A DNA stretch of 64,000 bases from a virus (taxonomy: Duplodnaviria > Caudoviricetes): positions 29,158-93,157 of IMG/VR virus record IMGVR_UViG_3300031998_000042; one strand, given 5' to 3'. Positions within the stretch are counted from its first letter, which is position 1. Every line of letters begins with the position of its first letter. Below, piece after piece: positions 1,763-63,101 of this stretch. The notes below the pieces were generated by a model, which saw only the letters and a list, made by a program, of their open reading frames with translations, was not told where the DNA came from and ran no database searches. Made by a program: the position numbers and the translations under genes.

Positions 1763-1772
1763 TCTACGGGGG
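1763..1772 (-). repeat. CCCCCGTAGA motif copy 1 (intergenic; inverted doublet with copy 2)
   Basis: ttcttctacgggggagc. Confidence 0.95.
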
Positions 1773-1791
1773 AGCTAATTTAAATAGTGCT

Positions 1792-1801
1792 TCCCCGTAG
1801 A
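1792..1801 (+). repeat. CCCCCGTAGA motif copy 2 (1 mismatch, TCCCCGTAGA)
   Basis: gcttccccgtagagaag. Confidence 0.85.
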
Positions 1802-1813
1802 GAAGTTAATAAT

Positions 1814-2437
1814 ATGAATGACTTTCAAGCAATTAATCAAATTATTGATGAGAGTATTCGTAATTCTTCTTATATAACTGTAGCAATATCAAGTGGAGTT
1901 TTTATATGTTATACTTTGATTGTTCAACTTATTAGTTTTTTCAAACAGAGGGATAAAAATAAACCTCTTATTGAAATGGCTACAGCTATAAAAGAAAATA
2001 CTGCAAACATTGTAAAGCTTAATGCAGTTTTAGATAAAATTTTTAAAGATGCTGAAAGAAAAGAAGCACATAAGTGTAAGAATACTATTGATTTAGGATT
2101 TAAAGCACTTGGTGCTAATATATCTCAAGAAATTGAATTAATTATAATTCATAATAATATTGAGAAAAATAGACAACTTATTCTAGATAATATAACTAAG
2201 TTAGTTTCTACAGAATATTATAAGTTGTATGCCATTCTTTCAGATTATGAAATAAACGAAACAAATGTTGCAAGAAGATTAAAAGAAGAATGGATTGATG
2301 AACTTACCAAAGCTATTATTGATATAGTATATGATGGACAAGATTCTATATCCCGAATTACTCAAATTAATAATAGAGTTGGAATATACATAAGTAAATA
2401 TTCTACTTATGTTTCAAATAAGACCTTTAACACATAA
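1814..2437 (+). CDS. Conserved crAss-like membrane-anchored protein (one N-terminal TM helix plus helical domain)
   Basis: ATG at 1814 after an AT-rich leader is preferred over the GTG at 1787; hydrophobic segment YITVAISSGVFICYTLIVQLISFF. Confidence 0.7.
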   Translation: MNDFQAINQIIDESIRNSSYITVAISSGVFICYTLIVQLISFFKQRDKNKPLIEMATAIKENTANIVKLNAVLDKIFKDAERKEAHKCKNTIDLGFKALGANISQEIELIIIHNNIEKNRQLILDNITKLVSTEYYKLYAILSDYEINETNVARRLKEEWIDELTKAIIDIVYDGQDSISRITQINNRVGIYISKYSTYVSNKTFNT

Positions 2438-2442
2438 CGTTT

Positions 2443-2679
2443 ATGTTGTATAAGTCAATAAATAAGTCAGCAATGCTTGACATTCTAGATGATAGAATGT
2501 TGGGCATTGCTGATTGTATTACAGTTCTATTTGAAGAAGGTTATATTCCAAACAAAAACAAAATAACTATTTTGGATTATACTTCTATTCTTATAGATGC
2601 TTACGAGAATATAGATGTTCTTTCTAAGGAACAACAAGATAAGTTAGATAGTCTGTATAATAAAGTTTTAAAACTATGA
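2443..2679 (+). CDS. Small structural protein (tail hub-like)
   Basis: 78-aa ORF packed tightly between neighbours; function from synteny only. Confidence 0.5.
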   Translation: MLYKSINKSAMLDILDDRMLGIADCITVLFEEGYIPNKNKITILDYTSILIDAYENIDVLSKEQQDKLDSLYNKVLKL

Positions 2680-3413
2680 GCAAACTTAAAGAAGTAGAAC
2701 TAGAATATGTATATGTTACAATTCCTGCTGACTATATTTGTGTATATCATCGTATTTTAGCAATGCTTGCTGATTATGGTGAAGAAATGCTCAAAGATTG
2801 TAAAGCATCTTGTACAGACAGAAATTCTAGTGTCATTGAATGTTATAATATGTTTAATGCTGCAGTTGCTGCTAGGAAACTTGGAAAAGAAAAACTTGCA
2901 GAAACTCTTATTAGGTATATTAAAGCTAAGATTAATCAAATATATCAAGGTCACGATAATTCAACTTCATTTATATTTCCTGTTGATGAAGATGGTCATA
3001 TTCAGGCACTTGTTTCTTGTGGTGAAAGACCTAAGTTTGAAATTGACCCTGATAATGGTGAATTATTTGAGCATAAATTTAATAATGGTTTTGATGAACA
3101 TTTCAGGTTAGGTCCAGAAGATAATAGTGCTCCAGATGGCACCCCCGTAGAAGAAAGTGGATTGGAAGTCCTCATTATTCCTACATATCATTATGGATTA
3201 CCTTGTGCTGATATTTATGCCAAATATAATGGAATTGAGATAGATATTAAAGAAACTACTTGTAGTCTTTATTTTGACGATGAACCTATTAATAGTTTTA
3301 CAGAAATAGATGATTTACAGGTTGGTGATCATAAATTTACAGTAGTTATTCAATATAATGGGGAAACTGCTGTTGATACAAAAGAATTATATTATGGAGG
3401 CAGTCAAGACTAA
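2676..3413 (+). CDS. Putative tail hub / fibre-attachment protein
   Basis: 245 aa; helical Cys-containing N-terminus (CKASC) and acidic Ig-like C-terminus; overlaps previous stop (ATGA). Confidence 0.5.
   Translation: MSKLKEVELEYVYVTIPADYICVYHRILAMLADYGEEMLKDCKASCTDRNSSVIECYNMFNAAVAARKLGKEKLAETLIRYIKAKINQIYQGHDNSTSFIFPVDEDGHIQALVSCGERPKFEIDPDNGELFEHKFNNGFDEHFRLGPEDNSAPDGTPVEESGLEVLIIPTYHYGLPCADIYAKYNGIEIDIKETTCSLYFDDEPINSFTEIDDLQVGDHKFTVVIQYNGETAVDTKELYYGGSQD
3142..3151 (+). repeat. CCCCCGTAGA motif copy 3 (in CDS, encodes TPVEE)
   Basis: ggcacccccgtagaagaaag. Confidence 0.95.
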
Positions 3414-3915
3414 TTTAGGTAAAGTTTCCATTAGTGTTGAAAAAGACTATTGGAATATCGATAAAGAATATGATAGATTGGTTATTACCGAACGTGCAAC
3501 AGATGGTAATGTATATTTAAGTAGAAAACCAGTACCTGCTGGAACACCTATTACAAATCGAGAATATTGGATTTGCTTTGGTAGACCTACTAATTCTGTT
3601 GTAACAGTAGTAAATGAACTTGGTAATAATCCAGAAGTAGCAATTGCTCAACAAGTTGTAACTAAGCAATTAAAAGATATTAAAAAACGTATCGATAAAT
3701 CCCTTGAAGATTTATATGATGCGATTTCAATGCTTAATCCTGAACAACAAGAAGCAATTGGTATTGCGCAAGAAGTTGTTAATTTAAGAAATCAATTACA
3801 TGGATATTCTCTTCTTAGCTGTACAGAAGCTGAGTATAATCAAATGATTCTAGATGAGGAAATTGATGAAAATACTCTTTACTTCATTGAAGAGGAAGAA
3901 GAAGAGCCTGTATAA
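3394..3915 (+). CDS. Tail-fibre-associated protein
   Basis: ATG 3394 (MEAVKTNLGKV). 'YLSRKPVPAG..ITNREYW' fibre N-terminal module and C-terminal 'TEAEY....IDENTLYFI' motif typical of Bacteroidetes phage fibres. Confidence 0.65.
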   Translation: MEAVKTNLGKVSISVEKDYWNIDKEYDRLVITERATDGNVYLSRKPVPAGTPITNREYWICFGRPTNSVVTVVNELGNNPEVAIAQQVVTKQLKDIKKRIDKSLEDLYDAISMLNPEQQEAIGIAQEVVNLRNQLHGYSLLSCTEAEYNQMILDEEIDENTLYFIEEEEEEPV

Positions 3916-3927
3916 AAAGTAAGTATT

Positions 3928-4071
3928 ATGACAGGATTAAAAGATTGGTCTGCGGTTAAACTTGGTAGTAAGACTATATCTGCTGTTTATAGAGGACTTA
4001 CTTTAGTTTGGATTGCAGTTTCTAAATATTGGAGAAGAAAAGATATTTGGAAAAGAAAAGAATTATGGTAA
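3928..4071 (+). CDS. Small Trp-rich fibre-associated protein (47 aa, not in ORF track)
   Basis: MTGLKDWSAVKLGSKTISAVYRGLTLVWIAVSKYWRRKDIWKRKELW; fills the gap between genes. Confidence 0.65.
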   Translation: MTGLKDWSAVKLGSKTISAVYRGLTLVWIAVSKYWRRKDIWKRKELW

Positions 4072-4090
4072 TAATTAAAATTAAATAATT

Positions 4091-8470: not shown

Positions 8471-8476
8471 TGAATT

Positions 8477-10828: not shown

Positions 10829-10838
10829 TCTAAAATAG

Positions 10839-10891: not shown

Positions 10892-11209
10892 ATGGAAATA
10901 CTTAATAATATTATAGAAACTACACTTAATAGTTTTGATTTTACATTTTGTATTGTAGTTAATCTTCTCACTTATGTAATTATTAAACTTGTAGATGAAG
11001 CAAGAAAGAGTAAAACTAATATTTGGATTAAGAGAGCAATTCTACTCTTTGTCATTTCTTCTACGGGGGTGGTATATTATCTAGTTAATGAAGATGTAAA
11101 ACTTATCCTTAACAGTGCTATTCTTGCACCTGTATTTTGGTCTTGGCTTATGAAACCTTTATGTAAAAAGTTTAAGATTGATTATAAGGATATTGATTAT
11201 ATTAATTAA
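10892..11209 (+). CDS. Holin-like membrane protein
   Basis: 105 aa, about 3 hydrophobic segments, charged C-terminal tail. Confidence 0.55.
   Translation: MEILNNIIETTLNSFDFTFCIVVNLLTYVIIKLVDEARKSKTNIWIKRAILLFVISSTGVVYYLVNEDVKLILNSAILAPVFWSWLMKPLCKKFKIDYKDIDYIN
11060..11069 (-). repeat. CCCCCGTAGA motif copy 4 (in CDS, encodes SSTG)
   Basis: catttcttctacgggggtggt. Confidence 0.95.
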
Positions 11210-11331: not shown

Positions 11332-11373
11332 ATAATAGCAAACTTTATAAAGTGAAACTTTGACAAATGACCT

Positions 11374-11383
11374 CCCCCGTAGA
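11374..11383 (+). repeat. CCCCCGTAGA motif copy 5 (intergenic)
   Basis: gacctcccccgtagaagaaag. Confidence 0.95.
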
Positions 11384-11426
11384 AGAAAGTAATAAAGATT
11401 TTAATAATAAACTAAATAATAAACTT

Positions 11427-11558: not shown

Positions 11559-11958
11559 AGTACTATACAAGATTGAATTGTATTTGCTGAAGATAATACC
11601 GATGGTCTTAGCGGCATTTAATTTGGCGAATACGATTCTTTCTTATTATGGTATAGATATTAAATTATTTACTTATATGTGTGGAATTGGTATTTTACCA
11701 ATTACATTTCTTTATATTTCTTCTTATGTCTTTAAATTCTGTTCTTATCATAGAATGTTCCTGCATTATATTGTTGTTAATAATGTACTTTGCTATATTG
11801 ATTATGAGTATAGAATTGATATTTCCGATAAAGATTATCTTTCAATACATTTGATTATTGTTGGAATATTTCTATTTATAATATTATATCTTAAATTAAA
11901 CTATGGCAAAATGGATAAATTCGTTTATTGCAAAAATGCTGAGGGATATTGCAAATAA
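11539..11958 (+). CDS. Multi-pass membrane protein
   Basis: About 4 hydrophobic segments; start uncertain (11473 or 11539). Confidence 0.6.
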   Translation: MEVVPNKVLYKIELYLLKIIPMVLAAFNLANTILSYYGIDIKLFTYMCGIGILPITFLYISSYVFKFCSYHRMFLHYIVVNNVLCYIDYEYRIDISDKDYLSIHLIIVGIFLFIILYLKLNYGKMDKFVYCKNAEGYCK

Positions 11959-12199
11959 ACTTGATAATGATACCTGTGAAATTACAGAAGATGAGGCAAT
12001 GGACATTGTACATGTTCTTGCTCATGAAGCTCTTAGTAAAGAAGAAGCTTGTATTTATATGAATTTAAAGACTAGTAGATTTGATGATTTAGTTCGAGAT
12101 GGTATTATTCCAAAAGGTGTAAAACGTAAAGGTTGGAAAGAACTTCGTTGGTATAAAGATGATTTGATTAAAGTTATTAAAGAACGAAATAGTCTTTAA
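11903..12199 (+). CDS. Excisionase/AlpA-like HTH DNA-binding protein
   Basis: 'LSKEEACIYMNLKTSRFDDLVRDGIIPKG...LRWYKDDL' winged-HTH pattern. Confidence 0.7.
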   Translation: MAKWINSFIAKMLRDIANKLDNDTCEITEDEAMDIVHVLAHEALSKEEACIYMNLKTSRFDDLVRDGIIPKGVKRKGWKELRWYKDDLIKVIKERNSL

Positions 12200-14493: not shown

Positions 14494-14534
14494 GATAATG
14501 TAATTGAGAGTGAGTGATAACCTATGACATTCCT

Positions 14535-14544
14535 TCTACGGGGG
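14535..14544 (-). repeat. CCCCCGTAGA motif copy 6 (intergenic, inside a hairpin)
   Basis: cattccttctacgggggtgcc, enclosed by gagtgataac/gttatcactc inverted repeat. Confidence 0.95.
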
Positions 14545-14584
14545 TGCCTAAGTTATCACTCTTCTTATTAAAAAGACAAGAGAT

Positions 14585-15007
14585 ATGTATAACAAAAGTG
14601 CAGGTAGTTATGACGAAATTCCTGATGGAATGAAAGTCTATATAAATAATTATGGTTGTCATTTTAATAAAAAGCTTTGTAAAGAGGCTGTTAGTAGAAT
14701 GACAACAAGGAATAAACAAACTGGTAAAGAAGAACATATACAACCATATACAAGACAAGAAGTAGAAAATATGCTTAATGTTTATGGAGTTCGTATAGAA
14801 CGTAATAAACTATATGATGCTGTTTATGTAGCTAATATGTGTAAAGCAGATTTTCTTGGAAGTTCTATTACATCAGAAGAACATCTTTGTAAATATGTAA
14901 AAGATTTACTCGATGATGTTGATGCAGAAGAAGGATTTGTATTTAATCGTTTTTATGCAGATACTATGTTTATGAATTGTCCTATTGAATGGGATGATAT
15001 GATATGA
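14585..15007 (+). CDS. Conserved Bacteroidetes phage protein (CCC operon)
   Basis: 'Y...YGCHFNKKLC..AVS.M...YDAVYVANMCKADFLGSSI...PIEWDDMI' family pattern. Confidence 0.75.
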   Translation: MYNKSAGSYDEIPDGMKVYINNYGCHFNKKLCKEAVSRMTTRNKQTGKEEHIQPYTRQEVENMLNVYGVRIERNKLYDAVYVANMCKADFLGSSITSEEHLCKYVKDLLDDVDAEEGFVFNRFYADTMFMNCPIEWDDMI

Positions 15008-15405
15008 TTAAACAAGTAATAGATGTAAATGGTTATTGGGAGATTATAGTTTATTATAATGTAAACTATAATCTTTTTGATATTATTGTAGATGATATGG
15101 CTCAATCTAGCACCCCCGTAGAAGGAATGGATAGAGTCAAATATAACCTTTTTATTAAAGGTGCTAAAGCTGTTACTATAACTTTTAAAGATAGATATAT
15201 AAGTTATATTATCTTTAGAAATCATAAAACTAAAGAAGATTATATATCTTCTATTGTACATGAAGCAGAACACGTTAAAGAATCTATGCTAGAAAAATAT
15301 AATATTCTTAATTCAGGTGAACCTCCAGCATACACTATAGGATATATTGTTAAAGAACTTTATAGTGTTTTTAACAAATATGTAAGAGTGGATGCAGATT
15401 TATAA
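15004..15405 (+). CDS. Small HExxH zincin-like protein
   Basis: SIVHEAEHV plus downstream 'GEPPAY' glutamate. Confidence 0.6.
   Translation: MIKQVIDVNGYWEIIVYYNVNYNLFDIIVDDMAQSSTPVEGMDRVKYNLFIKGAKAVTITFKDRYISYIIFRNHKTKEDYISSIVHEAEHVKESMLEKYNILNSGEPPAYTIGYIVKELYSVFNKYVRVDADL
15113..15122 (+). repeat. CCCCCGTAGA motif copy 7 (in CDS, encodes TPVEG)
   Basis: agcacccccgtagaaggaatg. Confidence 0.95.
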
Positions 15406-16255: not shown

Positions 16256-17209
16256 ATGGCTATTCAAGAAAAACCTATCGGTTTAAAAGATTATCATAAA
16301 AGCATGCAAGCTTATTATACAGAACAGATTGAAAAAGCAGAAGATGAAATTGCCAATCTGACTACTGAAATGAATGTATTATACGATGAAATAAAGGAGA
16401 ATAAAGAAGTATATGCTAATGATTATAAAATTTATATCTTTAAATATAAAGAAATAGCTCAAAACAGATATATTGATGGTAGTTTGATAAGGTTTGCTAA
16501 AACTGCATATCTAAATAAAAAAGAAGAATATAAACTTACAGTTGAATTGTATCATCTTTTAAGATATGCTAAATTACAAGAAAAAATTTATAAACTTGAA
16601 AAAGATATAGTTTTCTATAACAAACTTGTTTCTTTAAATACAAAAGAATATACTGAGATACTTAGAGAATATTATAAACAATTACATAAATTTATGATTC
16701 TTAATGGTTATGGATATTCTTTAGGAGAAATTGGTTGGATTTGTATTAATAGATGTCATGTTAAGAAAACATTTAGAAGACTTATAGATTTCAAGGCTAC
16801 AAAAGAAAGAGAAAAGCAATTACTTGCAGAAGGTAAAAAAATATATAATAAAGATGAAGCCGAATGGTGTTTGAGAAATGGAATTGAATATCATGCCGAA
16901 GATAAAAGAGTATTTAAAGAAGATGAATATGTATATGAAGTTCCATTAATTGATTCTAAAATTCCAGGAGGTTCAGATTTTAAATTAGAGTTAATAAACT
17001 ATCGAGGTGGAGATACAAAAGGTAAGTTGCATGATGAATTGTTACAAGAAACAAATAATGATACAACAAAAATATGTGAACTTGACATAGACCTTAGAAC
17101 CAAGATAGTTTTATGTAATAGAGCTGATAAATTAATATATAATAATTTTATTAGAAATGAACATCAAACGTCAATTAACGCTAGCAAGGCTACTCGCGAA
17201 GGTAAGTAA
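16256..17209 (+). CDS. Conserved protein, probable IHF/HU-like DNA-binding domain with N-terminal coiled coil
   Basis: Position between ring genes as in crAss-like phages; 'LNGYGYSLGEIGWICI' resembles the HU beta arm. Confidence 0.45.
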   Translation: MAIQEKPIGLKDYHKSMQAYYTEQIEKAEDEIANLTTEMNVLYDEIKENKEVYANDYKIYIFKYKEIAQNRYIDGSLIRFAKTAYLNKKEEYKLTVELYHLLRYAKLQEKIYKLEKDIVFYNKLVSLNTKEYTEILREYYKQLHKFMILNGYGYSLGEIGWICINRCHVKKTFRRLIDFKATKEREKQLLAEGKKIYNKDEAEWCLRNGIEYHAEDKRVFKEDEYVYEVPLIDSKIPGGSDFKLELINYRGGDTKGKLHDELLQETNNDTTKICELDIDLRTKIVLCNRADKLIYNNFIRNEHQTSINASKATREGK

Positions 17210-42500: not shown

Positions 42501-45500
42501 CTATTGAAAAAGAATTTGGTCTTATTAAAGATGTGGATGTTCAATCTGAAGATCCTAATATTCAAGGTTATCTCAATAAAATTAAATCTTCTATAGATTC
42601 TATTAGAAATTCAACACTTGTTAATCAGGCATTTGATTTATATGCTGAAAATTATCTTGGTGAACTTTCTAAAAATCCACTTATTCAACAACATATGATT
42701 AGTATTCTTGATGGTTTCTGGAAGAGTAACTGGGCTGAGTCTGTATTTAATGATATACAAGAAGCTCCAAATCCAATTATTCAGGTTACTATGAAAGAAT
42801 TTATGAAGGATATGCGTTCTGCACAAATGAATGCAAGAAAACGTATAGACGAATTTGGTAAATTTATGAGTGACCTTAGAGCAGAAGCTGCTAAGAATGG
42901 TCAATCTATTGATTTCAGTCATATAATCGATGAATATGGTAGATTTATTCAAGAATATACTGATAAGTTCTTAGAGGATAGAGATAGATTGCAAGAAGAT
43001 GTTAGAAAAGCAAAAGAAGAATTTGGTGAAAATTCTGTTGAACATCTTAGAGCTAGACTTATTTATAATGAGTGGAAAGCAGAAAATCTTGAACAACCTC
43101 TTGTAAAAGAATATTACGATGAAGTAAATGCTCTTGAGAGAAAGATTCTCTTTGGTACTCCTACAGAAGATGAAGTAACACATAGAATTATTAATGTTGG
43201 TGCAAGCCCTCATTTGTTCGCTTATTATGAAAAATTAAGAAGAGAACGTAATAATATCTTACATAGTCTTTCTGATGATACTCCAAATGCAGAATTGGAT
43301 AATCGTCTTGATGAAATCAATAAAGAACTTGATTTAATTCTTGGTGATTTTTATTATAACGAAAAAACTGGTACTCTTGAAGAGAAAACTGAAACATACG
43401 GTAATACTCTTGAAGATGCTATGAAGAGTTATTTCCATACTGATATTATAAATGAATATGTTGAAAAACGTAGAGAAATTGAAAACAAATATTATGGAAG
43501 AAAAGCTAAATTTGGATTTGAAGAAGAAGTAGAACGTAATGCCAAAATTGTACAGGCTTTTGAATCTACTTATCCTGAAGCTGTACTTCAAAATAAGCCA
43601 GATTATATTAAAGCTAAAACATGGTTAAGAAGAAATGCTATTCGTAAACCTTCTGTAAAAGGAGAATGGGCTAAAGAATTAAGAGATGCTTATGAAACTT
43701 TAGGTCGTAAAGATGACACAGATACAACTAGTACAAGAAATGTTCTTTGGGATAAAACTAAAACTCATGGAAGAATTGATGAATTTGGTGTATTTGATGC
43801 CACTTATATGACTGATGAGGAAATAGACCAACTTAAAGCTAAAGAAACTCAACAATTTAGAAATCATGATGATAATCCTTTATCTGATAGAACATTAATT
43901 AGTAATGGTGCCCCAGATAAGACTGTATATTCTAGAGAATTTTATAAAGGATTTACTGGAGGTACAGGTAAAGATAATGCAGAATGGTTTAAAGTTGTAA
44001 CTGAAATTAATGATTTACTTGCCCCATATTATGATAGTGCAAATGAACGTGTAAATCTTCAACTTATTAAAAACGATAAAGAAGGAATTGAAATACTTCG
44101 CAAACTTACTAAACTTTATGATCGTCTTGCAAATATTAATAAAACTGAAAGTAAAGATGATAAGAAAAAACGTTATAAATGGATTGAAGAAAATGTAGAA
44201 TTTGCTATAAATGAAGCTCTTTATGAAGCAGATAGAATTTGGGCTGAAGGATTACCTAAAGACCAATTTAGAACTGCTATTCTTGGTTTAATTAAAACTG
44301 TAGATGCTAATTGGAATGTTGGTCCTAATAGTTTCTTATATGGTTATATTAAACCTAAAGGAGAAACATTTAAAGAGTATGGTACAGGTAAAGAAATTAA
44401 ATCTGTAGATGAAAAGAAAACTAAAGCTCTTGCAACTATTGCTAAATACACAGAACGAGTTCCTACTAAATATTATAGTGAAAAGTTCTATGAGATGAGT
44501 CAAAAAGGTGAAGAAGAGTTTCAAAAATGGTTTATTGCAAATCATATTTATAATCCTTATACTCATGGTTATCAACCTCTTCGCTGTTGGACTAGTGTAA
44601 GATATGGTAGTGATTTGTCTTATGACTATTATCCATCTTATGCTCAAAAAGAACGTTATATTAGGGATGGTAAATATGATGAAAATGATCCTACTCAAAT
44701 AGGTGTAACTGTTAATTTAACAAAAGAAGAACAAGAGAAATATGAAGCTAAAAAGAAAGAAGGTGAAGACAAATCTGCTTATATTAAGCGTCTTAGAGAT
44801 ACAGCAGATAGTGTAGAAGCTGAAGGCAAGCATAAAGCAGCTGAAGAACTTAGACATCTTGCAGAAGTAGCAGAAACTGGTTATGATAGTAAAACTGACT
44901 TTGTAAACAAAAATTATAAAGAAGGTGGACACAGTATTAATTATAGAAGAGAAGGTCATAACTATGATAGAACTATAAATGCAAATGAATATGAACTTCG
45001 TGCTAGAGACTACATGAGAGAAGTTCTTATGAGTCTTGCTCATACTAAAGAATCTCGTAACTATCTCGAAAAAGGTTGGTTACCCTCTCGTTCTTCTACG
45101 GGGGAGCATGATTTAAAATATTGGGCTAAACAACTTGCAGGACTTGTTGGTTTTGAAACTTTACATAATGGTAAAGAAGATTTCTATGAGGATATAGAAT
45201 ATTATAAGGATAGACCTATTCCAATGCCTATGCTTAATCAAGTTAAAGGTAAAGGTGTGGTTACAAACGATATGAGTTATCCAAAACGAGAAGATTATGA
45301 TACAGAAGAAGAATTTATTAGAAAGAAAGAAGAATATGCTGCTAAACAAAAAGAAGTAGATAAACAAAATCTTGAAATTCATAAAGCTCTTCATGATAAA
45401 GATTATGAGTCTGTGATTAAAGAATTTATTCTTAAAGCCGCACAATATAATGCTGTACAAGATAATAAGTATAAACTTTTCCTTGCACAACAACTTATTA

Positions 45501-47389: not shown

Positions 47390-47403
47390 GTTCTAAACTA
47401 GCT

Positions 47404-47413
47404 CCCCCGTAGA
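47404..47413 (+). repeat. CCCCCGTAGA motif copy 15 (intergenic, overlapping terminator base)
   Basis: agctcccccgtagagaag. Confidence 0.95.
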
Positions 47414-47450
47414 GAAGATGTAGGGAAACTTACATCTTCTCTTTTTGTTT
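47411..47450 (+). terminator. Rho-independent terminator after RNAP gene
   Basis: agagaagatgtagg-GAAA-cttacatcttctct followed by ttttgttt. Confidence 0.85.
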
Positions 47451-49034: not shown

Positions 49035-49090
49035 CATATTTATAGATATTTAACATAAAAATTTCATCACTAATACTACCATCCATTTCT

Positions 49091-49100
49091 TCTACGGGGG
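49091..49100 (-). repeat. CCCCCGTAGA motif copy 16 (intergenic; inverted doublet with copy 17)
   Basis: ccatttcttctacgggggtggtc. Confidence 0.95.
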
Positions 49101-49146
49101 TGGTCGTTTGAGCACTATTAAACTCGTTAATAGGTTCAAAACAGCT

Positions 49147-49156
49147 CCCCCGTAGA
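49147..49156 (+). repeat. CCCCCGTAGA motif copy 17 (intergenic)
   Basis: agctcccccgtagaagagtgg. Confidence 0.95.
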
Positions 49157-49176
49157 AGAGTGGAACACTCATCTCA

Positions 49177-54250: not shown

Positions 54251-54270
54251 AGTTAATAAGTTTTAGACTG

Positions 54271-54302: not shown

Positions 54303-54365
54303 CTTTTTGTAAATTTTTTATTTGCTTATTTTGGACATATTTTCAACAGGTGGGCAAATATACCT

Positions 54366-54375
54366 CCCCCGTAGA
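54366..54375 (+). repeat. CCCCCGTAGA motif copy 18 (intergenic)
   Basis: tacctcccccgtagaagaatgg. Confidence 0.95.
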
Positions 54376-54489
54376 AGAATGGCGAGAAGAGCCACTTATG
54401 AGCCAAATATGGGCTATTATAGGGCATATCATCTCACTTTTGAACAAGAAAACACCCTACCGACACATTCTATCAGATAGGGTATTAAC

Positions 54490-54846: not shown

Positions 54847-55040
54847 AAATCATCTTCATGTTTACTAAAACTAGCATACAAATAAAATGTAAGAAAATCA
54901 AATTCTATTTCATAATATTTATTTGTTTTCATACCTTTTATTGTAGGTATAAAATAAAACCAATCGTTAGAAAAAAGTTCACTAACTATTTCAATGTCTA
55001 TATCAATAGTACATTTTTCTTTAATTTGTTTCCAAGTCAT
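54843..55040 (-). CDS. Small aromatic beta-hairpin protein (65 aa)
   Basis: 'FYFIPTI...IEFDFLTFYL'; resembles 52415-52579. Confidence 0.6.
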   Translation of the reverse strand: MTWKQIKEKCTIDIDIEIVSELFSNDWFYFIPTIKGMKTNKYYEIEFDFLTFYLYASFSKHEDDL

Positions 55041-56296
55041 TATATAAATATTTTTATAAGTTTAGCATGGAAAGGAACTTGTTTAACTCCACTTCTTTCT
55101 CTAAATTCAACAAGACCTTTCTTACCTATAAGAAGATGTTTAATATTAAGATGTTCTCTTTGTTTATCTTGTGAAATATTAATTGTACATTCAAAAAGTT
55201 CATCATTAATATCGTTTCTTAAAGTATAGATAGGAAGACCACGTTTATCAGATTTAATATCAACAATTTCAAACATACCATCATCTATTTTCTTATATTT
55301 GAACATAGCTTGATTACGTTTTCCAAATTGATATTCAGAACCTTCATTTCTTACAATAAGACCTTCAAATCCTAATTCAATAAACTTATCTCTATGTTCC
55401 ATTGCATTATTTATATTTGTAATACAAAAATCTGGCAATAAAACAAATTGTTGTTTATTATTAAGATGTTCTTCTTTAGTTTTAAATCTTTTTATAAGAA
55501 TAGAATTATTACTAAGAATAAATCCACTACGTCTAATGGCAGACATATTTTCTGCAGCAATATCATACCACCAATATTGAAGTTTATAATGTTGAGGAAG
55601 AGATGGATTTTTAACAAATGAATTAATATCGTTTACAGAATATCCTGGAAGATATAATTCACCATCAAGCATAGCACCTTCTTCTATCATTATATCAATA
55701 AGAGGTTGCTTAATTTTTTGAAGAATAATATCATCCATCCAAGACATTTTAGTAGTCCAATCTTGACCTTCACGAGAATGATAAGTAAGTTTAATAGGTT
55801 TAAACATATCACCTTCATTCTTTTCAGCACCAATTAGACATCTAAGACCATTGATTTTCCATTGACCAAGAAATGTACCAAATTTCTCAAAAGGTTTATT
55901 GTCTTCAAGAACTTTGGCAAGCATAGGAAGGACAAAGCCTTCCGAAGTAGTAGAATATTTTGGAAGATAAGTATTTAAATAATAAATTAAATTCTTTTCT
56001 GCATTACTACCTGGATTTCCATTTTCCATAGCTTTAGCATCAAAAGAATCTAACCCATCTTTAAGTTCAGAAAGTTCTTTATAACCTTCCTTACGTTTAG
56101 CATTAATTCTACTTTGAAGTTCGTTAACATTCTTTTTAGTAATAGAAATAGTTTCTTTATGAAGATGTCCTCCAACAACTCCATATGATATATCTATATA
56201 CTTGACAGTACCAAAAGGACTATCTGATGCTATAACTTCATTAGCAGACCATACAAGTGGTCTACCTTGAGCATTACGTTTATATAAATTAATCAT
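55040..56296 (-). CDS. ATP-dependent DNA ligase
   Basis: Motif I QWKINGLRC, III LDGELY, IV GFEGLIVR, V MFKYK; ATG at 56296. Confidence 0.92.
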   Translation of the reverse strand: MINLYKRNAQGRPLVWSANEVIASDSPFGTVKYIDISYGVVGGHLHKETISITKKNVNELQSRINAKRKEGYKELSELKDGLDSFDAKAMENGNPGSNAEKNLIYYLNTYLPKYSTTSEGFVLPMLAKVLEDNKPFEKFGTFLGQWKINGLRCLIGAEKNEGDMFKPIKLTYHSREGQDWTTKMSWMDDIILQKIKQPLIDIMIEEGAMLDGELYLPGYSVNDINSFVKNPSLPQHYKLQYWWYDIAAENMSAIRRSGFILSNNSILIKRFKTKEEHLNNKQQFVLLPDFCITNINNAMEHRDKFIELGFEGLIVRNEGSEYQFGKRNQAMFKYKKIDDGMFEIVDIKSDKRGLPIYTLRNDINDELFECTINISQDKQREHLNIKHLLIGKKGLVEFRERSGVKQVPFHAKLIKIFI

Positions 56297-56525
56297 TATT
56301 TTTCTCTTTAATTTGTTTTTTATGATACTTAACACCAGAAACAAAACCTTTAGTAAAAGCATAATCACAAACTTCGATCATATCTTCATAACAACAAATA
56401 TGACCTTTACGTTTGTATACAGGACAATCTGTACAACGTGACCTACCACTATACGCTTTAGCAATTAATTTTATAGATAGTTGTTTTGTTGTTTTATTTT
56501 TTGCAATACGTTCTTTTAGAGCCAT
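56289..56525 (-). CDS. Small Cys-rich protein (78 aa)
   Basis: CxxC...CC...C pattern. Confidence 0.65.
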   Translation of the reverse strand: MALKERIAKNKTTKQLSIKLIAKAYSGRSRCTDCPVYKRKGHICCYEDMIEVCDYAFTKGFVSGVKYHKKQIKEKNND

Positions 56526-56637
56526 TTGTAATACAAAATCTTATAAAATTCTTTTGACTTTCTGTAAGTTTAATTTTAGATGTTTTATTATTATGTTTTA
56601 TAACACAATATTTTTCAATAAAATTTATAATATCCAT
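56494..56637 (-). CDS. Hypothetical protein (47 aa, not in ORF track)
   Basis: MDIINFIEKYCVIK...; ATG abuts the upstream stop. Confidence 0.45.
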   Translation of the reverse strand: MDIINFIEKYCVIKHNNKTSKIKLTESQKNFIRFCITNGSKRTYCKK

Positions 56638-57129
56638 TTAATTTACAGGTTTAAAATTAACAGTTAAAAGACTAAGTTTAACTTTCTTTTCTCTAATCTT
56701 ACGTTCAATAGCAGTTTCACGTTTAGGCTTACCATCAACATTCTTTCTACGGGGGAGCTTTTGTTTGAGTCCTTGCTCAAACTTCTTTTTGCCCTTTTCA
56801 CCGTCATACCAAATAGGAGGATTAAGTTTCTCATATTCAATATTACGTTGATGTAGTTCAATAAGTTCAAGTAAAAGTTGTTCTTTTAGAGTTTCCTCCA
56901 TTTGTTCTGCAATATAAATTGCAGCACTCATCTCTCTACGATACGGATAACCAATAGTTTGCATTGGTCGCATACCATTATCATATACTCTTGAACAATC
57001 TAAATAAAAAAGCTGCTTTCTAAAAGCAGCCTCTAAACTTCCATTCTCTTTAATGGAATTTTCTACCATTCTTAAAGCAATGTCGTCAAGTTCAATCATA
57101 TATTGATTTATACTACTTAAATCTACCAT
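56638..57129 (-). CDS. Hypothetical protein with basic C-terminus (163 aa)
   Basis: ORF in replication operon. Confidence 0.7.
   Translation of the reverse strand: MVDLSSINQYMIELDDIALRMVENSIKENGSLEAAFRKQLFYLDCSRVYDNGMRPMQTIGYPYRREMSAAIYIAEQMEETLKEQLLLELIELHQRNIEYEKLNPPIWYDGEKGKKKFEQGLKQKLPRRKNVDGKPKRETAIERKIREKKVKLSLLTVNFKPVN
56746..56755 (-). repeat. CCCCCGTAGA motif copy 19 (in CDS, encodes LPRRK)
   Basis: cattctttctacgggggagct. Confidence 0.95.
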
Positions 57130-57563
57130 ATTGTTCTCTTAAAAATAACGCATCTTTTAGGTTTTCCTAAAAGACCATGAAAATATTGTACAATAAGTTC
57201 AGGTCTAAATGTTTCCCAAACTTTAAAATTACCATCATAACTACAACTATGATTAGCATAATTATAATTTGCAGGAATAATTGATGAATTACCAGCAAAT
57301 AAATCATCATTATATTTTATAGTTTCATAATCTTCACCACCCGTTTTGAAATCCATTTCACCATAAAAACAAATACTGGTTTTAGGAATCTTTATAACTT
57401 TTTCATTAATAGATAGTGAAATTATATCAACGTGTTTATCTTCTATAAGTTCTTCAACACTTTCATCAATCTCTGCAATATAGAATGCTTTACGAGCTTT
57501 ACCATCACTAAAATGGCACATTACTCGAGGTGAGGAAATCGTCGTCAAAATAACTGTCTTCAT
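57123..57563 (-). CDS. Hypothetical protein (146 aa)
   Basis: ORF overlapping primase end. Confidence 0.7.
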   Translation of the reverse strand: MKTVILTTISSPRVMCHFSDGKARKAFYIAEIDESVEELIEDKHVDIISLSINEKVIKIPKTSICFYGEMDFKTGGEDYETIKYNDDLFAGNSSIIPANYNYANHSCSYDGNFKVWETFRPELIVQYFHGLLGKPKRCVIFKRTIW

Positions 57564-58737
57564 TGTCTTGTTTGAATTTAAGTTCTACATACTTTAGAGT
57601 ATCTTTAATAAATACATTAATTTCTTCCTTTGTAAACTTTTCGTGAAGGTCTGCAAAATCCTTACATTTAAGATTAGGTAGACCTAATTCACCTCTAGTA
57701 ATAAATAAATATGGTATGTTATATACTTCTTCTAGATATTTAGCACATTTTCTACCAGTCCTATCAAAATCCATAAGACTTAATATCATACCAGTACTTT
57801 TAAGTTTACCAGCTAAATAATTATATTCATTTTGTTTAAGATTATAACTTTCACTCGGTAAATTAATAATACCAATATTCAGTTTTTCATTGCTAGCCCC
57901 CCCGTAGAGAGGATATGCAAAGAGATGACTACCTATGCTTAATCTATCTTTACTAGACTTAGTAATAAGTATATAATCATAATTATCAAGTTCAAGATTT
58001 AAAAGACCTTCTAGAACATTAGAATTAGTAATAAATTTTAACTGTTTTTCTCTATTTCTAAGAGGAAAATAAAGTTTAAAAAGATATATACCATGTTTAT
58101 CTTGTCCTATTGTATAAGCATAACAAGGGTCTTTTTTAGAATAATAATATTTAGGAACAGTATCAACACCACGGTTGATATAATATTGGTCAACAGGAAT
58201 TACAAAGTGTGTATTAAGATAATTCAAATTAATATTCCATTTACCCCACACTTCTTTATCTTGTTGATTCCAACTTCTAGGTACTATTTCAATAATAGCT
58301 CTTCTAGATTTTCCTTTAACAATAGCATTTTGAATAGTTATTTGAACATTCGGGTCAGTTTCCTTTCCATCAATAATGTCAGAAAATGTATAAGCTATAT
58401 GTTTAAGAATAAAGTAAAAGTCTTGTTTATTATTAGGTTCAATCTTACGTTCATATACAATACTTAATACATAACCAACACAATCGTAGCAATCACCAAA
58501 AAACCCAAAACCACCAAAATCCCTAACCTTTAATCTACCTTTGATATTATATTGAATACCCATACTTTTATTAAAATCATCGTCTCTAAATACAGAGGTG
58601 ATAAGAGCATTGTTTTTAATACAATATTCAACTGTTTCCATAGGTATATCTAAATATTTAGAAACTATAAGTTCTTGACTTATTTTAGATTCTATATATT
58701 CTTTAGTAAGAGTATTAGTAAGTATTGTACGTTTCAT
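57508..58737 (-). CDS. DnaG-like primase
   Basis: N-terminal 'SVFRDD....DFGG..GDC' module; TOPRIM 'ITKSSKD' and 'DFDRTG'; 'KDFAD'. Confidence 0.8.
   Translation of the reverse strand: MKRTILTNTLTKEYIESKISQELIVSKYLDIPMETVEYCIKNNALITSVFRDDDFNKSMGIQYNIKGRLKVRDFGGFGFFGDCYDCVGYVLSIVYERKIEPNNKQDFYFILKHIAYTFSDIIDGKETDPNVQITIQNAIVKGKSRRAIIEIVPRSWNQQDKEVWGKWNINLNYLNTHFVIPVDQYYINRGVDTVPKYYYSKKDPCYAYTIGQDKHGIYLFKLYFPLRNREKQLKFITNSNVLEGLLNLELDNYDYILITKSSKDRLSIGSHLFAYPLYGGASNEKLNIGIINLPSESYNLKQNEYNYLAGKLKSTGMILSLMDFDRTGRKCAKYLEEVYNIPYLFITRGELGLPNLKCKDFADLHEKFTKEEINVFIKDTLKYVELKFKQDNEDSYFDDDFLTSSNVPF
57899..57908 (+). repeat. CCCCCGTAGA motif copy 20 (in primase CDS, encodes LYGG)
   Basis: agcccccccgtagagagg. 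Confidence 0.95.
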
Positions 58738-58744
58738 AAGATAT

Positions 58745-58789
58745 AAAAAAAATAGAGGGATAAGCCTTATTTAAGAACTTATCCCTCTA
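58745..58789 (-). terminator. Rho-independent terminator after SSB gene
   Basis: tagagggataag / cttatccctcta stem with A8 on + strand. Confidence 0.8.
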
Positions 58790-58812
58790 CGTTTTTCAGG
58801 AGTTCTTATATA

Positions 58813-59754: not shown

Positions 59755-59782
59755 AACTTAATTAAGTTTTTAAATGATTATA

Positions 59783-59817
59783 AAACAATAAAGGGGATGA
59801 GTTATTCACTCATCCCC
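59783..59817 (-). terminator. Hairpin/terminator
   Basis: ggggatgagt / actcatcccc stem with A-rich flank. Confidence 0.7.
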
Positions 59818-59849
59818 GACAGTTTTAAGAAAACGTGATTGATACTAAA

Positions 59850-60635
59850 TTATTCACTCTTCTCGCCACGAACGATAGGGTCATTATCTTCAACAAACTC
59901 AATAGGATAAGCTACATAAGCTTCACCACGATACTCACACTGGATTGGAGTGTCAAGAAGAACGTTAAATACACGATTCTTCTTAGTCTTGTTCTCACCA
60001 AGGTCAGCCTTAAGTTTGTTCCAAATAGCAGTATCAGTAAAGTTCAGAGGACAACCAATACCTGTAGCAGTACCTGTAGTAGCAGTCTTAGAACCTTCTG
60101 CATCATGATACTTAGGAGATTCAACATCATCAACTGAGATGAGAGCAATCAGAGTATCATCATCTGCGTCTACACCACCATTACGCTCAATAAGAGCATC
60201 ACGATTAGCATCGAGAATTTCCTTACCATGTTCAGCAATAAAATTCTCCTTATCTTCCTTAGTGAAACGAACAGAAGCCATGATAGGATTACCCTTATCA
60301 TCATATTTCTTAAGACCCTTTGCAATAGCATATACAGTAAGGTCTTCAAGAAGCTGACGCTGACCCTCTACAGAGTTAATATCAATATTGTTTTCAGCAG
60401 CATAAGCAACAATATCATCAGCCTTATTCTGAATCAGTTGCTCAATAGTCTGAGCATTATTGATAAACATAACATTCTCACCTACTGCAATACCAAGAGC
60501 CTTAGAAACTGCAGAAGTAATCATAAACTTACCCTGAGTACTATTTGCAATCAGCTGTGGGAGAGCATTAATAGTAGATGATTTTTGACCTGCGTTCATT
60601 ACACTAAATCCACCGAATTTAATACCAGTTTTCAT
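59850..60635 (-). CDS. Conserved hypothetical protein, highly expressed-type codon bias
   Basis: 261 aa in replication module. Confidence 0.75.
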   Translation of the reverse strand: MKTGIKFGGFSVMNAGQKSSTINALPQLIANSTQGKFMITSAVSKALGIAVGENVMFINNAQTIEQLIQNKADDIVAYAAENNIDINSVEGQRQLLEDLTVYAIAKGLKKYDDKGNPIMASVRFTKEDKENFIAEHGKEILDANRDALIERNGGVDADDDTLIALISVDDVESPKYHDAEGSKTATTGTATGIGCPLNFTDTAIWNKLKADLGENKTKKNRVFNVLLDTPIQCEYRGEAYVAYPIEFVEDNDPIVRGEKSE

Positions 60636-60713
60636 AACTTTAATTGGTTTTAAAAATTAATAAATAAGAAAATTAATAATATGTTGTTTAGAACAACGAA
60701 TTTCATTTTTACC

Positions 60714-61634
60714 TTAATTTTGAGTTTCCTCAATAATTTCATAGTCAGAAGGAGCAAGGTCAACCCCTTCAACTATTTTAAGTTCTCCACTTTCCATACA
60801 ACCCATCAGAACATCATCACCAATATCTCTTGCACCTAAAGTGAAGGCACGATGACCAATCAATATGCGAGCATATTTTTTATAAGTATCTTTAGTAAAT
60901 AAATCAGCAGTTTGTGCTTCAGTATAACTAAAATGACTTATAACTTGCATTACTCGTTCTTTACCATTCCCCAAATTGAAATATCTTGTAAACTTATATT
61001 CAGTAACAAAATCTATAGGCTGAGCAGGTATTCTTATAACAGGAAATTTACCTTCAGCAGCAAGCTTTTGTGCATGAATACGATTAATAGCTTTTTCACA
61101 TTTATCAGATACTTCAAATTCGTTATAAATTCTATTACTTAGGTCTGTAAACCATTGCACTGGATAAATACCAACAGTATCATCTTTTGTAGCCTCTAAA
61201 GCTTCTTTAGCAGTACGACACTTAACACAATATTGTGGAATCTGTGTTTCTAGATAAATCGTATTGCCATCAGTATACTGATACTGAGGAACATAATCTT
61301 TAGTGCATTCCCAAGTTATTCCTGCCCTTAGCAATAACGATTTAACTATATGAATATCAACACCAGTTTTGCCATTAATAACATGGATATGTTCGGTACA
61401 ACTTGAAAAAGGAAGATTTAAATCTTGAGCACGTGCAAGAATAGCTAAACCATCTTGAACAGATTTAATACCACTTTTATCACTTTGTATATATCTCTTT
61501 AGAAAAGTTTCAGCACTTGCTAATTGCTTTTCATCAAGAAGATTAAGAACACCAAAACCAGAATTAAATTCATTGTGTCTTGTAGTCAATGCACGACTAC
61601 CACCACCATTATTAGGTTTTGTATTATCGTTCAT
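60714..61634 (-). CDS. RecT/Redbeta-like single-strand annealing protein (putative)
   Basis: 'AQDLNLPF....HIHVINGK' and 'YKKYAR.LI.HRA....AR'. Confidence 0.6.
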   Translation of the reverse strand: MNDNTKPNNGGGSRALTTRHNEFNSGFGVLNLLDEKQLASAETFLKRYIQSDKSGIKSVQDGLAILARAQDLNLPFSSCTEHIHVINGKTGVDIHIVKSLLLRAGITWECTKDYVPQYQYTDGNTIYLETQIPQYCVKCRTAKEALEATKDDTVGIYPVQWFTDLSNRIYNEFEVSDKCEKAINRIHAQKLAAEGKFPVIRIPAQPIDFVTEYKFTRYFNLGNGKERVMQVISHFSYTEAQTADLFTKDTYKKYARILIGHRAFTLGARDIGDDVLMGCMESGELKIVEGVDLAPSDYEIIEETQN

Positions 61635-61660
61635 TAAGTCAAAGAGCGTTTAATTGTTTT

Positions 61661-61697
61661 ACGATGCAAATATACGACATTTATTTCAATCTACAAT
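61661..61697 (-). promoter_or_regulatory. Bacteroidetes sigma-A-type promoter
   Basis: TATATTTG -7 box with ATTG 19 nt upstream; 15-bp identity with the dut promoter. Confidence 0.65.
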
Positions 61698-63101
61698 AAT
61701 AAAATCGGAATTATTTTCACTTATTATCTGATTTTCAAATTTCTTAACTATTTTGTGCGTTTCAGTTTCCAATCTTTCCTCCAATTTCTTTTCCTCTAAT
61801 GAGTTTTTAACAAATAGTGTATATACTTTCAGGGGAGAAGAAACATCAAGTTTAGATAATCTATAAAGATAATTTTCAACATTTTCACACTGGGAAGAAG
61901 TAATTATAATAATATCTACTTTAATATTAAGTGTTTTATCTGGAGCATTATTTGTACTAAGCACTCTTATATTATCATTGTTAAATAGACTTTCAAATAA
62001 TGTCTTTTGTGCTTGAGCACCAAGCTCTCTAGGTTGTCCTTTCTTAACACCACTTTTATAAAGTATAGGCTTACCTCTCATATCTAAAGCAGGAATGTTT
62101 TCAACTTTATCATGATAATTTCCACAAATATCAGCTTCAGAACAATTATTTAAATATTGTGTAACTTTATTTGCAAAATCAGCACGTTTATTGATAACAA
62201 GAACTTTAGCATCAGGATTAGCAGTTATTATTTCTAATACTTTTTCTAGTTTATCATCAAAATCAGATAAGAAATTACATCTATTCCTAATTATATCATA
62301 AGTTTGTTTTGCTCTATCATGTAGATGATTAGGATTATACAATTCATCTACTTGTCTATTATATTCAAAAGACATATCAAGAGCGTCAGACCAACCATTA
62401 TTTTGTGCAATTTGATAACAGACTTCTATTGCAGAAATATTCAAAGAAGTATTACCAACTCGACATTGATCCATAATACCAAAATTACCAAATATGTTAA
62501 GTGAAGTTTCAATATATTTGTTATAATACTTTAAAAGTTTTAATTGTTCACTATCTTCTTTAATGGTAATTGGCACAAACTCCTCTTCTACAGGGGAGCT
62601 AAGTCGAAGTTGTTCAATATCTTCTTGTTTAAAATCTTCAAGAATAGTACAATATTTATATAATGTACCCATATCTTGAACAGAAAGTCTATTATTAATT
62701 ACAACAAGTTTAAATTTAGAACGAAGAAATTTTTGAAATATATCTTCATCAAGTTTCTTTGAATGATAAAGAACACATAACATTGGTGGATAATAATTAT
62801 CCATCTTAGTAACAAAAGATTCTGTAAGAACTTTAATATTCTTACTATCTAATAATTTTACAAATTCTTCATCATTTTCATCACCCTGATGTGTGATAAA
62901 ATCAACAATTTGTGCTCGTTCAACAAAATCACTAGTAATTATATTTACTTTTGTCGAAGGACTTTTATTATAAATTCCTTGTAGAATGCCAAGAATTAAA
63001 TATCTATCATCGACAGTTGAAGGTATAATTGCAGTACCAACACCTTTATTAACTCGCCAATGTTCAATAGCATTTACAAAAAGATTTTCAATAGTTTTCA
63101 T
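61686..63101 (-). CDS. SF2 helicase-like protein with degenerate ATPase motifs
   Basis: Helicase C-domain layout (KVLVI...; IRVLSTN...VDIIII), but no Walker A GKT/S or DExx seen. Confidence 0.6.
   Translation of the reverse strand: MKTIENLFVNAIEHWRVNKGVGTAIIPSTVDDRYLILGILQGIYNKSPSTKVNIITSDFVERAQIVDFITHQGDENDEEFVKLLDSKNIKVLTESFVTKMDNYYPPMLCVLYHSKKLDEDIFQKFLRSKFKLVVINNRLSVQDMGTLYKYCTILEDFKQEDIEQLRLSSPVEEEFVPITIKEDSEQLKLLKYYNKYIETSLNIFGNFGIMDQCRVGNTSLNISAIEVCYQIAQNNGWSDALDMSFEYNRQVDELYNPNHLHDRAKQTYDIIRNRCNFLSDFDDKLEKVLEIITANPDAKVLVINKRADFANKVTQYLNNCSEADICGNYHDKVENIPALDMRGKPILYKSGVKKGQPRELGAQAQKTLFESLFNNDNIRVLSTNNAPDKTLNIKVDIIIITSSQCENVENYLYRLSKLDVSSPLKVYTLFVKNSLEEKKLEERLETETHKIVKKFENQIISENNSDFIIVD
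62587..62596 (-). repeat. CCCCCGTAGA motif copy 21 (1 mismatch; in CDS, encodes SPVEE)
   Basis: cctcttctacaggggagct. Confidence 0.8.

Follow-up and report, generated by a model that had tools for sequence, protein, structure and literature searches.

The stretch of DNA considered here (the window, 64,000 nucleotides) comprises bases 29158-93157 of the 93,157-bp virus record IMGVR_UViG_3300031998_000042 (Duplodnaviria; Caudoviricetes) and carries, dispersed on both strands, a short GC-rich word with the core CCCCCGTAGA. The core is present in the window in 18 exact copies and three copies with one mismatch, 21 in total, and in the whole genome in 26 exact copies and five with one mismatch, 31 in total. 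An earlier note, made from the letters of the window, had listed the same 21 copies, and all of its coordinates and strands were borne out; the extended consensus that it gave had to be corrected. The full word, obtained from 231 pooled copies of nine genomes, is TAGCW-CCCCCGTAGA-RGRR, 18 nt long and non-palindromic, and with the junction between its pyrimidine and purine parts marked it can be written as TAGCW-CCCCCGT|AGARGRR. A position-weight scan of the genome gives 31 sites at 16-35 bits and nothing at 8-16 bits. The weakest copy, at genome position 23370 (-), 5.8 kb ahead of the window start, reads CCCCCATAGAGAGC (16 bits) and lacks a counterpart in all six relatives aligned there; chance could account for it, or it may be a site that is being gained or lost.

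Each copy in the window is given below as the 18 nt of the word, in window coordinates, and orthologous sites are named by the labels of the relatives (G001-G004, G006, and G007), eight of which were compared in full. The first two copies, at 1759-1776 (-) (core 1763-1772, exact, 34.7 bits) and 1788-1805 (+) (core 1792-1801, TCCCCGTAGA, one mismatch, 21.4 bits), are intergenic and constitute the left and right arms of a tight inverted pair, which can form a hairpin of -13.2 kcal/mol. The copy at 3138-3155 (+) lies inside the open reading frame (ORF) 2676-3413, where it is read as PVE, and the copy at 11056-11073 (-) inside ORF 10892-11209, read as STG. The latter site is present in G004, and unrelated sequence is found in its place in G003, G006, and G007, of equal length in G003 and G006, which indicates that the site was gained by substitution. 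The copy at 11370-11387 (+) is intergenic or falls in a doubtful ORF of 63 aa; the one at 14531-14548 (-) is intergenic, with an orthologous site in G004. Further copies are located at 15109-15126 (+) inside ORF 15004-15405 (PVE; orthologous sites in G003 and G004) and at 22573-22590 (-) inside ORF 22248-23759 (LRG; orthologous sites in G002, G003, and G006). The ORF of 2365 aa at 26484-33581 contains three copies, at 28831-28848 (+) (CGCCCGTAGA, one mismatch, ARR, 29 bits), 30212-30229 (-) (STG), and 32496-32513 (+) (PVE). Three copies are also held, as the earlier note had pointed out, by the virion RNA polymerase ORF 33584-47389, whose 4601-aa product bears DFDID, the catalytic motif of crAss virion RNA polymerases; they lie at 36710-36727 (-) (YGG; orthologous sites in G001 and G003), 39953-39970 (+) (PVE; orthologous site in G003), and 45091-45108 (-) (STG). 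The next copy, at 47400-47417 (+), lies 15 nt past the stop of this ORF. After it, at 47414-47445 (+), where the two gene arms converge, comes a distinct hairpin which, with its T-run, looks like an intrinsic terminator. The copies at 49087-49104 (-) and 49143-49160 (+) are again the left and right arms of a tight inverted pair, placed in the intergenic region between the dUTPase and DUF932 genes and capable of forming a hairpin of -22.9 kcal/mol. The copy at 54362-54379 (+) is intergenic, and that at 56742-56759 (-) lies inside ORF 56638-57129 (PRR; orthologous site in G004). The most conserved site of all, at 57895-57912 (+), is placed antisense inside the primase gene and read as YGG. The last copy, at 62583-62600 (-) (CCCCTGTAGA, one mismatch), lies inside the helicase ORF 61686-63101 (PVE), and exact orthologous sites are present in six relatives.

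The number of copies is far above chance expectation. In dinucleotide shuffles of the window the core is expected 0.26 times, with a maximum of 1, versus the 21 copies seen, and the remark that every C5/G5 run belongs to the motif held for all 18 runs of the window. A further test was the codon-shuffled null, which had been named beforehand as a test of the claim. When synonymous codons were shuffled 300 times, with proteins and codon usage kept, no exact core was obtained in any shuffle (mean 0.0, maximum 0), versus 16 in the called coding sequence. The reading frames are as described, PVE, PRR, STG, LRG, and YGG, and the frame that would give TAG is never used. Across the nine genomes 67% of the sites lie within coding sequence, and orientation proved independent of transcription, with 65 copies sense and 89 antisense to genes. 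The sites are enriched four-fold in non-coding DNA, which contains 33% of them in 8% of the sequence. A literature search by motif strings and by words returned unrelated primers and papers only, with no description of the motif; the earlier note had left room for an element already characterised, and none was met there. The motif is thus a real signal at the DNA level and apparently an undescribed one.

When viral contigs were scanned with a 17-mer, the word turned up in about a dozen, most of them about 90 kb long and each with 13-26 exact cores; a reversed control word was present in none. One of the matches is cr271_1, classified in Crassvirales, Intestiviridae, Obtuvirinae. The 24 matching sequencing runs came mostly from cattle and other animal guts and from manure, with no RNA run listed, and contigs from four sequencing runs represent related strains. 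The eight relatives compared in full are about 70% identical to the genome under study, across the alignable 15-45% only. An orthologous copy is found at 31 of the 41 alignable sites of this genome, and over all genome pairs 229 of 292 alignable sites are shared (78%). The 20-nt flanks on either side of shared sites are only 50-65% identical, below the wider surroundings, and therefore the word sits in variable, tolerant stretches of genes. Relatives without a given site have unrelated sequence in its place, mostly of equal length, so sites arise by substitution and not by insertion. The site in the primase gene occupies the same codons in all eight relatives, and of the 50 full-length primase loci shown 48 have it there as well; its letters follow the local spelling, once with an amino-acid change from YGGA to YGAD. 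Primase-gene sites occur also in p-crAssphage, crAss002, Rudgehvirus, and cr11_1. Stretches of 55-75 bp that looked like terminal repeats in relatives were considered as a link to genome ends and set aside, being probably assembly overlaps.

Neighbouring copies are on the same strand in 66 of 222 transitions only. The gaps between same-strand copies have a coefficient of variation (CV) of 0.33-0.5, a mode of 7-8 kb, and a minimum of 858 bp, few of them exceed 10 kb, and the regularity is significant (p<0.01) in 11 of 18 strand sets. Among pairs closer than 400 bp, 33 are inverted, versus 13.2 expected with independent strands, and none is direct, versus 12.4 expected. The two orders of such pairs, - to + and + to -, are equally frequent and have the same gap distribution (p 0.80). 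At the shortest distances, 27-60 bp, almost all pairs lie between genes, and such pairs are capable of forming hairpins. The possibility that neighbouring inverted copies share flanks was examined and rejected, adjacent pairs agreeing at 8.3-9.3 of 20 bases versus 9.0 for all pairs. This strand logic, with no direct tight pairs and with evenness on each strand, is not expected of a protein that binds duplex DNA irrespective of orientation.

The signal extends over the family, in spellings that differ from lineage to lineage. Each of the Intestiviridae genomes checked, p-crAssphage and crAss002 included, has its own spelling, and loci anchored on the primase gene show the same dependence on lineage (e.g., GCCGCCCCGTA(G/A)AAG); the spelling of cr8_1 is TAGCCGCCCCGTAAAAGGTATG. 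In p-crAssphage 31 copies of (G/T)AC(C/T)CCCCGT(A/G)GAGGATGGA were counted, in crAss002 about 34 copies of TTCCCCC(G/A)TA(A/G)AGGAG, in Rudgehvirus jaberico about 26 copies of C(T/A)CCCCTGTA(A/G)AGGAG, and in cr11_1 about 30 copies of GACCCCCCGTAGAGGAT. All four genomes have regular spacing on each strand (CV 0.31-0.64); strand alternation is clear in p-crAssphage, crAss002, and Rudgehvirus jaberico but not in cr11_1, where 13 of 30 neighbours are on the same strand. The record of Rudgehvirus jaberico (OQ198719.1, loci L182-L186) gives its taxonomy as Crudevirinae; its spelling and the N-terminal segment of its primase are nearer to crAss002 (Churivirinae) than to p-crAssphage or cr11_1. Outside the family, crAss001 (Steigviridae, MH675552.1, loci L201-L206) contains 29 exact copies of a shorter word, CTCCAGAAG, versus about 1.2 expected (200 simulations, maximum 6 copies). 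These copies alternate (8 of 28 neighbours on the same strand) and are evenly spaced on the + strand, and the word may be a short relative of the Intestiviridae word. Another kind of element is found in cr127_1 (Crevaviridae, MT774393.1, loci L197-L200), which has nine copies of a GC-rich repeat of about 30 nt, TAATGGCCACAAGGGCGAGAGGTGTTCCGA, for example at 11355, 11910, 28696, 28870, 42038, and 42231, several of them in inverted pairs 170-560 bp apart. The absence of the word from relatives, named in the earlier note as part of what would refute the claim, was not what was found: orthologous sites are present in relatives, and separate spellings across Intestiviridae. From the sequences compared we infer that the specificity of a reader would co-evolve with the word.

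The word belongs to the phage and not to genomes of the host type. Among prokaryotes, sampled at one genome per species, multiple occurrences of the 17-mer are confined to contigs of about 80-94 kb, which are evidently phage DNA binned into metagenome-assembled genomes (MAGs). Two such MAGs, named 'Bacilli bacterium' and 'Acholeplasmatales bacterium', have 22 and 8 cores, all but two on a single contig (JAFRAK010000011.1, 93,767 bp, loci L129, L147-L149, L152, and L156; JAGCWW010000084.1, 79,096 bp, locus L135); these contigs are almost certainly crAss-like phage contigs misbinned into bacterial genomes. In 81 genomes of a Bacteroidales-type order the 10-mer was found 0-7 times per genome, not above a control word, from which it follows that the phage is about 1000 times denser in the word than the sampled Bacteroidales. 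Taking together the codon-shuffle null, the conservation of positions, the lineage spellings, and the absence from host-type genomes, the claim of the earlier note that selection acts on the DNA itself, keeping the motif as a cis-acting site, is upheld. We hold it highly probable that the 18-nt word is a phage-private cis-acting signal under DNA-level selection, placed at about 31 fixed positions and read on each strand separately by a factor that drifts with the lineage. Of the functions offered in the note, a genome organiser, an aid to ejection or packaging, a nick site, and a polar loading site, a nick or a polar start site fits better than a plain duplex-binding organiser, because the word is read strand by strand and is evenly spaced on each strand.

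What such a factor might do is suggested by the architecture of the word. In all spellings a block of pyrimidines ending in T (C in crAss001) is followed by 6-7 purines, usually with A first, and in none of 47 single-mismatch copies does the mismatch fall on T6 or A7, versus 9.4 expected. The complementary strand reads 5'-YYTYCTA-CGGGGGAGCTA-3', with CTA or TTA at the junction, depending on the variable R at +2, and CTG in crAss001, followed on the 3' side by a conserved G-rich flank of 10-11 nt (CGGGGGAGCTA). DnaG-type primases use CTA, TTA, and CTG as initiation trinucleotides, reading the 3' base without copying it. T7 primase is reported to require about 10 nt on the 3' side and to find about 26 strong sites in the T7 genome (PMC12839067), and the crAss virion RNA polymerase transcribes single-stranded DNA (ssDNA) well and duplex DNA poorly (10.1101/2020.03.07.982082). 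On the basis of the junction architecture, the DnaG trinucleotides, the flank of T7 primase sites, the enzymes encoded by the phage, and the ssDNA-transcribing polymerase, we tentatively propose that each copy could be a start site for primer synthesis on ssDNA, a reading that leads those considered here but is itself doubtful. The template would be the G-rich complementary strand, with its DnaG-type trinucleotide; the 3' base of the trinucleotide would be cryptic, read and left uncopied, and the flank of about 10 nt would hold the enzyme. The primer would be all-purine, pppA-G-A-R-G-R-R, and its synthesis would need ATP and GTP only. The reader would be the phage DnaG-family primase or, less likely, the virion RNA polymerase. 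One site per about 6-8 kb on each strand would then provide regular entry points for DNA synthesis, whichever way the fork moves, which would suit a genome that encodes RecT- and Gam-like proteins and may replicate by recombination, and the tight inverted pairs would act as bidirectional start points.

Under this proposal the word would resemble the DnaG and T7 primase sites in being read on one strand, in combining a short start with a putative binding flank of about 10 nt, in giving a primer made of two kinds of nucleotide, and in numbering a few dozen strong sites per genome, and a DnaG-family primase is encoded here. The difference is that the word under study holds much more information, about 30 bits, is spaced more widely than Okazaki fragments, evenly and with alternating strands, keeps its positions across the family, and is known from sequence. 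The primase gene (57508-58737, -) matches PHROG 12622 'DNA primase' with an E of 2.6e-66, its homologues are annotated as DnaG family primase, and its fold weakly matches the cores of the DnaG and T7 primases. Its residues ~44-75 contain SVFRDDD..SMG (SPFRED-THPSFG in p-crAssphage), a segment which, judged by eye, we take to resemble the zinc-binding motif CPFHxEKTPSF of DnaG. With Ser and Arg in place of the Cys/His ligands, the N-terminus may be a zinc-less recognition domain, and the phage primase is the candidate reader if the copies are primer starts.

Besides the primase, the genome encodes other enzymes that primer starts would need. An ATP-dependent DNA ligase is encoded at 55040-56362 (-) (Pfam DNA_ligase_A_M, E 2.3e-13) and belongs to the Intestiviridae core, each of the 13 genomes compared having one. 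Whether the sites are primer starts or nicks, the ligase would close nicks or link fragments. A neighbour of the primase, of 313 aa, is similar to single-stranded DNA-binding protein in the protein atlas, where a protein of 261 aa was uninformative. An SF1 helicase is encoded, as are homologues of the annotated RecT and helicase of cr271_1 and a Sipho_Gp157 protein, recognised by Pfam, whose cr271_1 homologue is annotated as Gam. The DNA polymerase gene appears as separate ORFs, at 63098-63928 (-) and past the window end, and in cr271_1 two adjacent coding sequences are annotated 'DNA polymerase'; an intron, stop-codon recoding, or splitting of the gene could account for this. Proteins of the replication, early, and tail regions were scanned with Pfam and PHROGs and gave no candidate for a sequence-specific DNA-binding protein or a nuclease. 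The readers named in the earlier note, an IHF-like protein (16256-17209) and a helix-turn-helix protein (11903-12199), found no backing in Pfam at E<=0.01. An attempt to find the reader through parallel changes of spelling (A versus L103, B versus C) was abandoned, the 'changed' position being the tolerated R, and a comparison of gene presence and absence relied on tblastn, which is too insensitive between families.

Several observations speak against the copies being primer starts. A match of three bases to primase trinucleotides is in itself weak evidence from sequence, and an 18-nt word exceeds by far the specificity of known primase sites. The same-strand mode of 7-8 kb is not comparable with the length of Okazaki fragments, which are usually 1-2 kb and in T7 up to about 6 kb, and the tight inverted pairs, in 2.5-fold excess, would not be predicted from simple priming of the lagging strand. 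GC and AT skew show no clear step at oriented sites; the step in GC skew is 0.017-0.019 (t 2.3-2.8), from genomes that are not independent of one another. As for the enzyme, the primase has zero sequence matches in Pfam or, by profile, in PDB, its AlphaFold model is poor (predicted local distance difference test score 64), and the zinc-motif-like segment lacks the Cys/His ligands. No comparable word was found in cr108_1, cr273_1, and cr130_1, in which primase homologues are detectable. Finally, nicking fits the architecture equally well, because the T|R junction matches the nick motif of phage tf.

The last point leads to programmed single-strand nicks, an explanation that we consider unlikely, though it comes close behind primer starts. 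It assumes that a phage nickase cuts packaged or replicating DNA at the T|A junction and that the ligase seals the cuts, the nicks serving as 3'-OH ends or swivel points, as in T5, phiKMV-like phages, and the tf/Rembedalsseter group. In T5 the nicks are confined to one strand. Nick-associated motifs are the only described phage motifs of similar look: they are short, conserved across relatives dissimilar in nucleotide sequence, and present about once per 3.5 kb (13 in 45 kb), and 88% of them overlap coding sequence in part or in full, irrespective of the coding strand (PMC11780129). In the tf motif, TACT/RTGMC, the cut falls at a T|R junction (PMC11780129), like that of CCCCGT|AG here. The density, the genic placement regardless of frame, and the strand-by-strand reading of the word agree with nicking, as does the ligase found in 13 of 13 Intestiviridae genomes. 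However, the Rembedalsseter-group motif (WACTRTGAC) is unevenly spread (PMC11780129), whereas here both strands are used equally and evenly and tight inverted pairs are frequent. The main difficulty is that nicks in inverted pairs 27-60 bp apart would risk breakage of the duplex. A nickase candidate was not found, the HNH gene of cr271_1 having no counterpart at the matching position.

A polar signal can also act without being a start site. Chi sites are words of 5-8 nt read by the host RecBCD or AddAB, common in the host genome and biased with the direction of replication. A private signal of this kind, at which a helicase-nuclease or translocase, encoded by the phage or the host, changes its behaviour on meeting the oriented word, so that phage DNA is protected or loaded with recombinase and word-less host DNA is degraded, would be polar, would be needed in both orientations, and would set an upper limit to the same-strand gap, all of which is seen. 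Being about 1000 times denser than in the sampled Bacteroidales, the word could mark self, and the SF1 helicase and the proteins whose cr271_1 homologues are annotated RecT and Gam would fit. Chi, though, is short, host-owned, and directed by replication, whereas the word has 18 nt, belongs to the phage alone, is missing from genomes of the host type, and alternates between strands. No RecB- or AddA-type nuclease was seen. Boundaries of recent recombination tracts in 23 related loci are not enriched at the sites: 8 lie within 100 bp, versus 6.4 expected (p 0.3), and the result is the same at distances of 30-300 bp, in a small test with 7 site columns. Such a signal is improbable in our view.

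The third possibility is an array of binding sites on duplex DNA, for a phage protein that organises the genome within the capsid or the replication factory, that assists packaging or ejection, or that acts as a dispersed regulator, as at the stoperators of L5 and the C1 operators of P1. Stoperators of cluster A mycobacteriophages are asymmetric, dispersed, and spelled differently in different lineages. Together with the P1 C1 operators they resemble the word in being asymmetric (about 13-17 bp there, about 18 bp here), in having 20-35 dispersed copies (about 30 here), and in a spelling that co-evolves with the binding protein, and the four-fold enrichment in non-coding DNA also speaks for such an array. 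On the other hand, those operators are mostly intergenic, oriented by transcription, and bound by a known repressor in temperate phages, whereas two-thirds of the sites here are genic and their orientation ignores transcription. The repulsion of same-strand copies and attraction of opposite-strand ones (0 direct versus 33 inverted tight pairs) is left unexplained, as is evenness per strand rather than overall, and no DNA-binding domain was found in the candidates named earlier. We give such an array little credence.

A signal for a phage RNA polymerase is a quite improbable reading. It could be a T7-like promoter, conserved from -12 to -1 with a purine-rich start, or a sequence-specific terminator or pause site, at which sense and antisense RNAs would begin or end; the architecture of the word resembles a promoter of a single-subunit polymerase followed by a purine-rich initial transcript. 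The tight inverted pairs form strong intergenic hairpins (z -5 to -7.6), and one copy lies 15 nt past the RNA polymerase gene. However, T7-like promoters would be placed upstream of genes and in their direction, and most sites are inside ORFs, half of them antisense, with three inside each of two giant essential ORFs. Early transcripts of the phi14:2 virion polymerase share no upstream motif, and its middle and late promoters are of host type (10.1101/2020.03.07.982082). Rfam and tRNA scans of the window gave zero matches.

Still less can be said for molecular drive, in which the word, like the DNA uptake sequences (DUS) of Neisseria and the uptake signal sequences (USS) of Pasteurellaceae, would build up through a DNA transaction that prefers molecules bearing it, or for a linker or microhomology used by relatives in the exchange of modules by recombination; both are very unlikely. 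The distribution is indeed similar to that of DUS and USS, with both orientations, coding and non-coding sites, inverted pairs, lineage spellings, and gain by point mutation, and USS are also evenly spaced. These words, however, serve DNA uptake in competent bacteria and are present in thousands of copies, whereas the word here belongs to a virulent-type phage and is unenriched in the sampled bacteria; we know of no comparable word in a virulent phage. Tract boundaries are not enriched at sites, neighbours share flanks no more than random pairs do, and positions held since the ancestor of the family require direct selection. A miniature mobile element (REPIN/RAYT or miniature inverted-repeat transposable element) or its footprints, which a GC-rich word in an AT-rich genome and REPIN-like tight inverted doublets might bring to mind, is hardly credible and in practice refuted, given that site-less relatives have mostly equal-length unrelated sequence and thus no insertion, that 78% of sites are orthologous across deep divergence, that the unit is non-palindromic and has no decayed copies (the empty range of 8-16 bits), and that no transposase was seen among the scanned proteins.

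If we return to start sites, whether primer starts or nicks, the proposal that Intestiviridae and crAss001 replicate from a private strand-specific lattice of starts, one per 6-8 kb on each strand and read by a co-evolving factor, falls somewhat short of likely and is advanced with caution. The codon-shuffle null, the count of direct and inverted pairs, the lack of decayed copies, the negative result on recombination, the crAss001 word, and the pyrimidine|purine architecture are what the present analysis adds. The lineage spellings can serve as compact markers, to classify Intestiviridae contigs and to spot misbinned phage contigs in MAGs, and the sites are positions to be respected when crAss phages are engineered. 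Of the virus families known from the human gut, the one that carries the signal, the prototypical crAssphage included, is the most abundant, and the replication mode of crAss phages is still unknown (PMC10136315). Since about 30 sites form a conserved lattice and put constraints on essential genes, a central and hitherto unseen step of DNA handling is implied, and this step is directly testable, since the cultured crAss002, Rudgehvirus jaberico, and crAss001 (with its own word) carry the signal. If the lattice of start sites is real, it would represent an undescribed mode of phage genome replication and of discrimination between self and host DNA.

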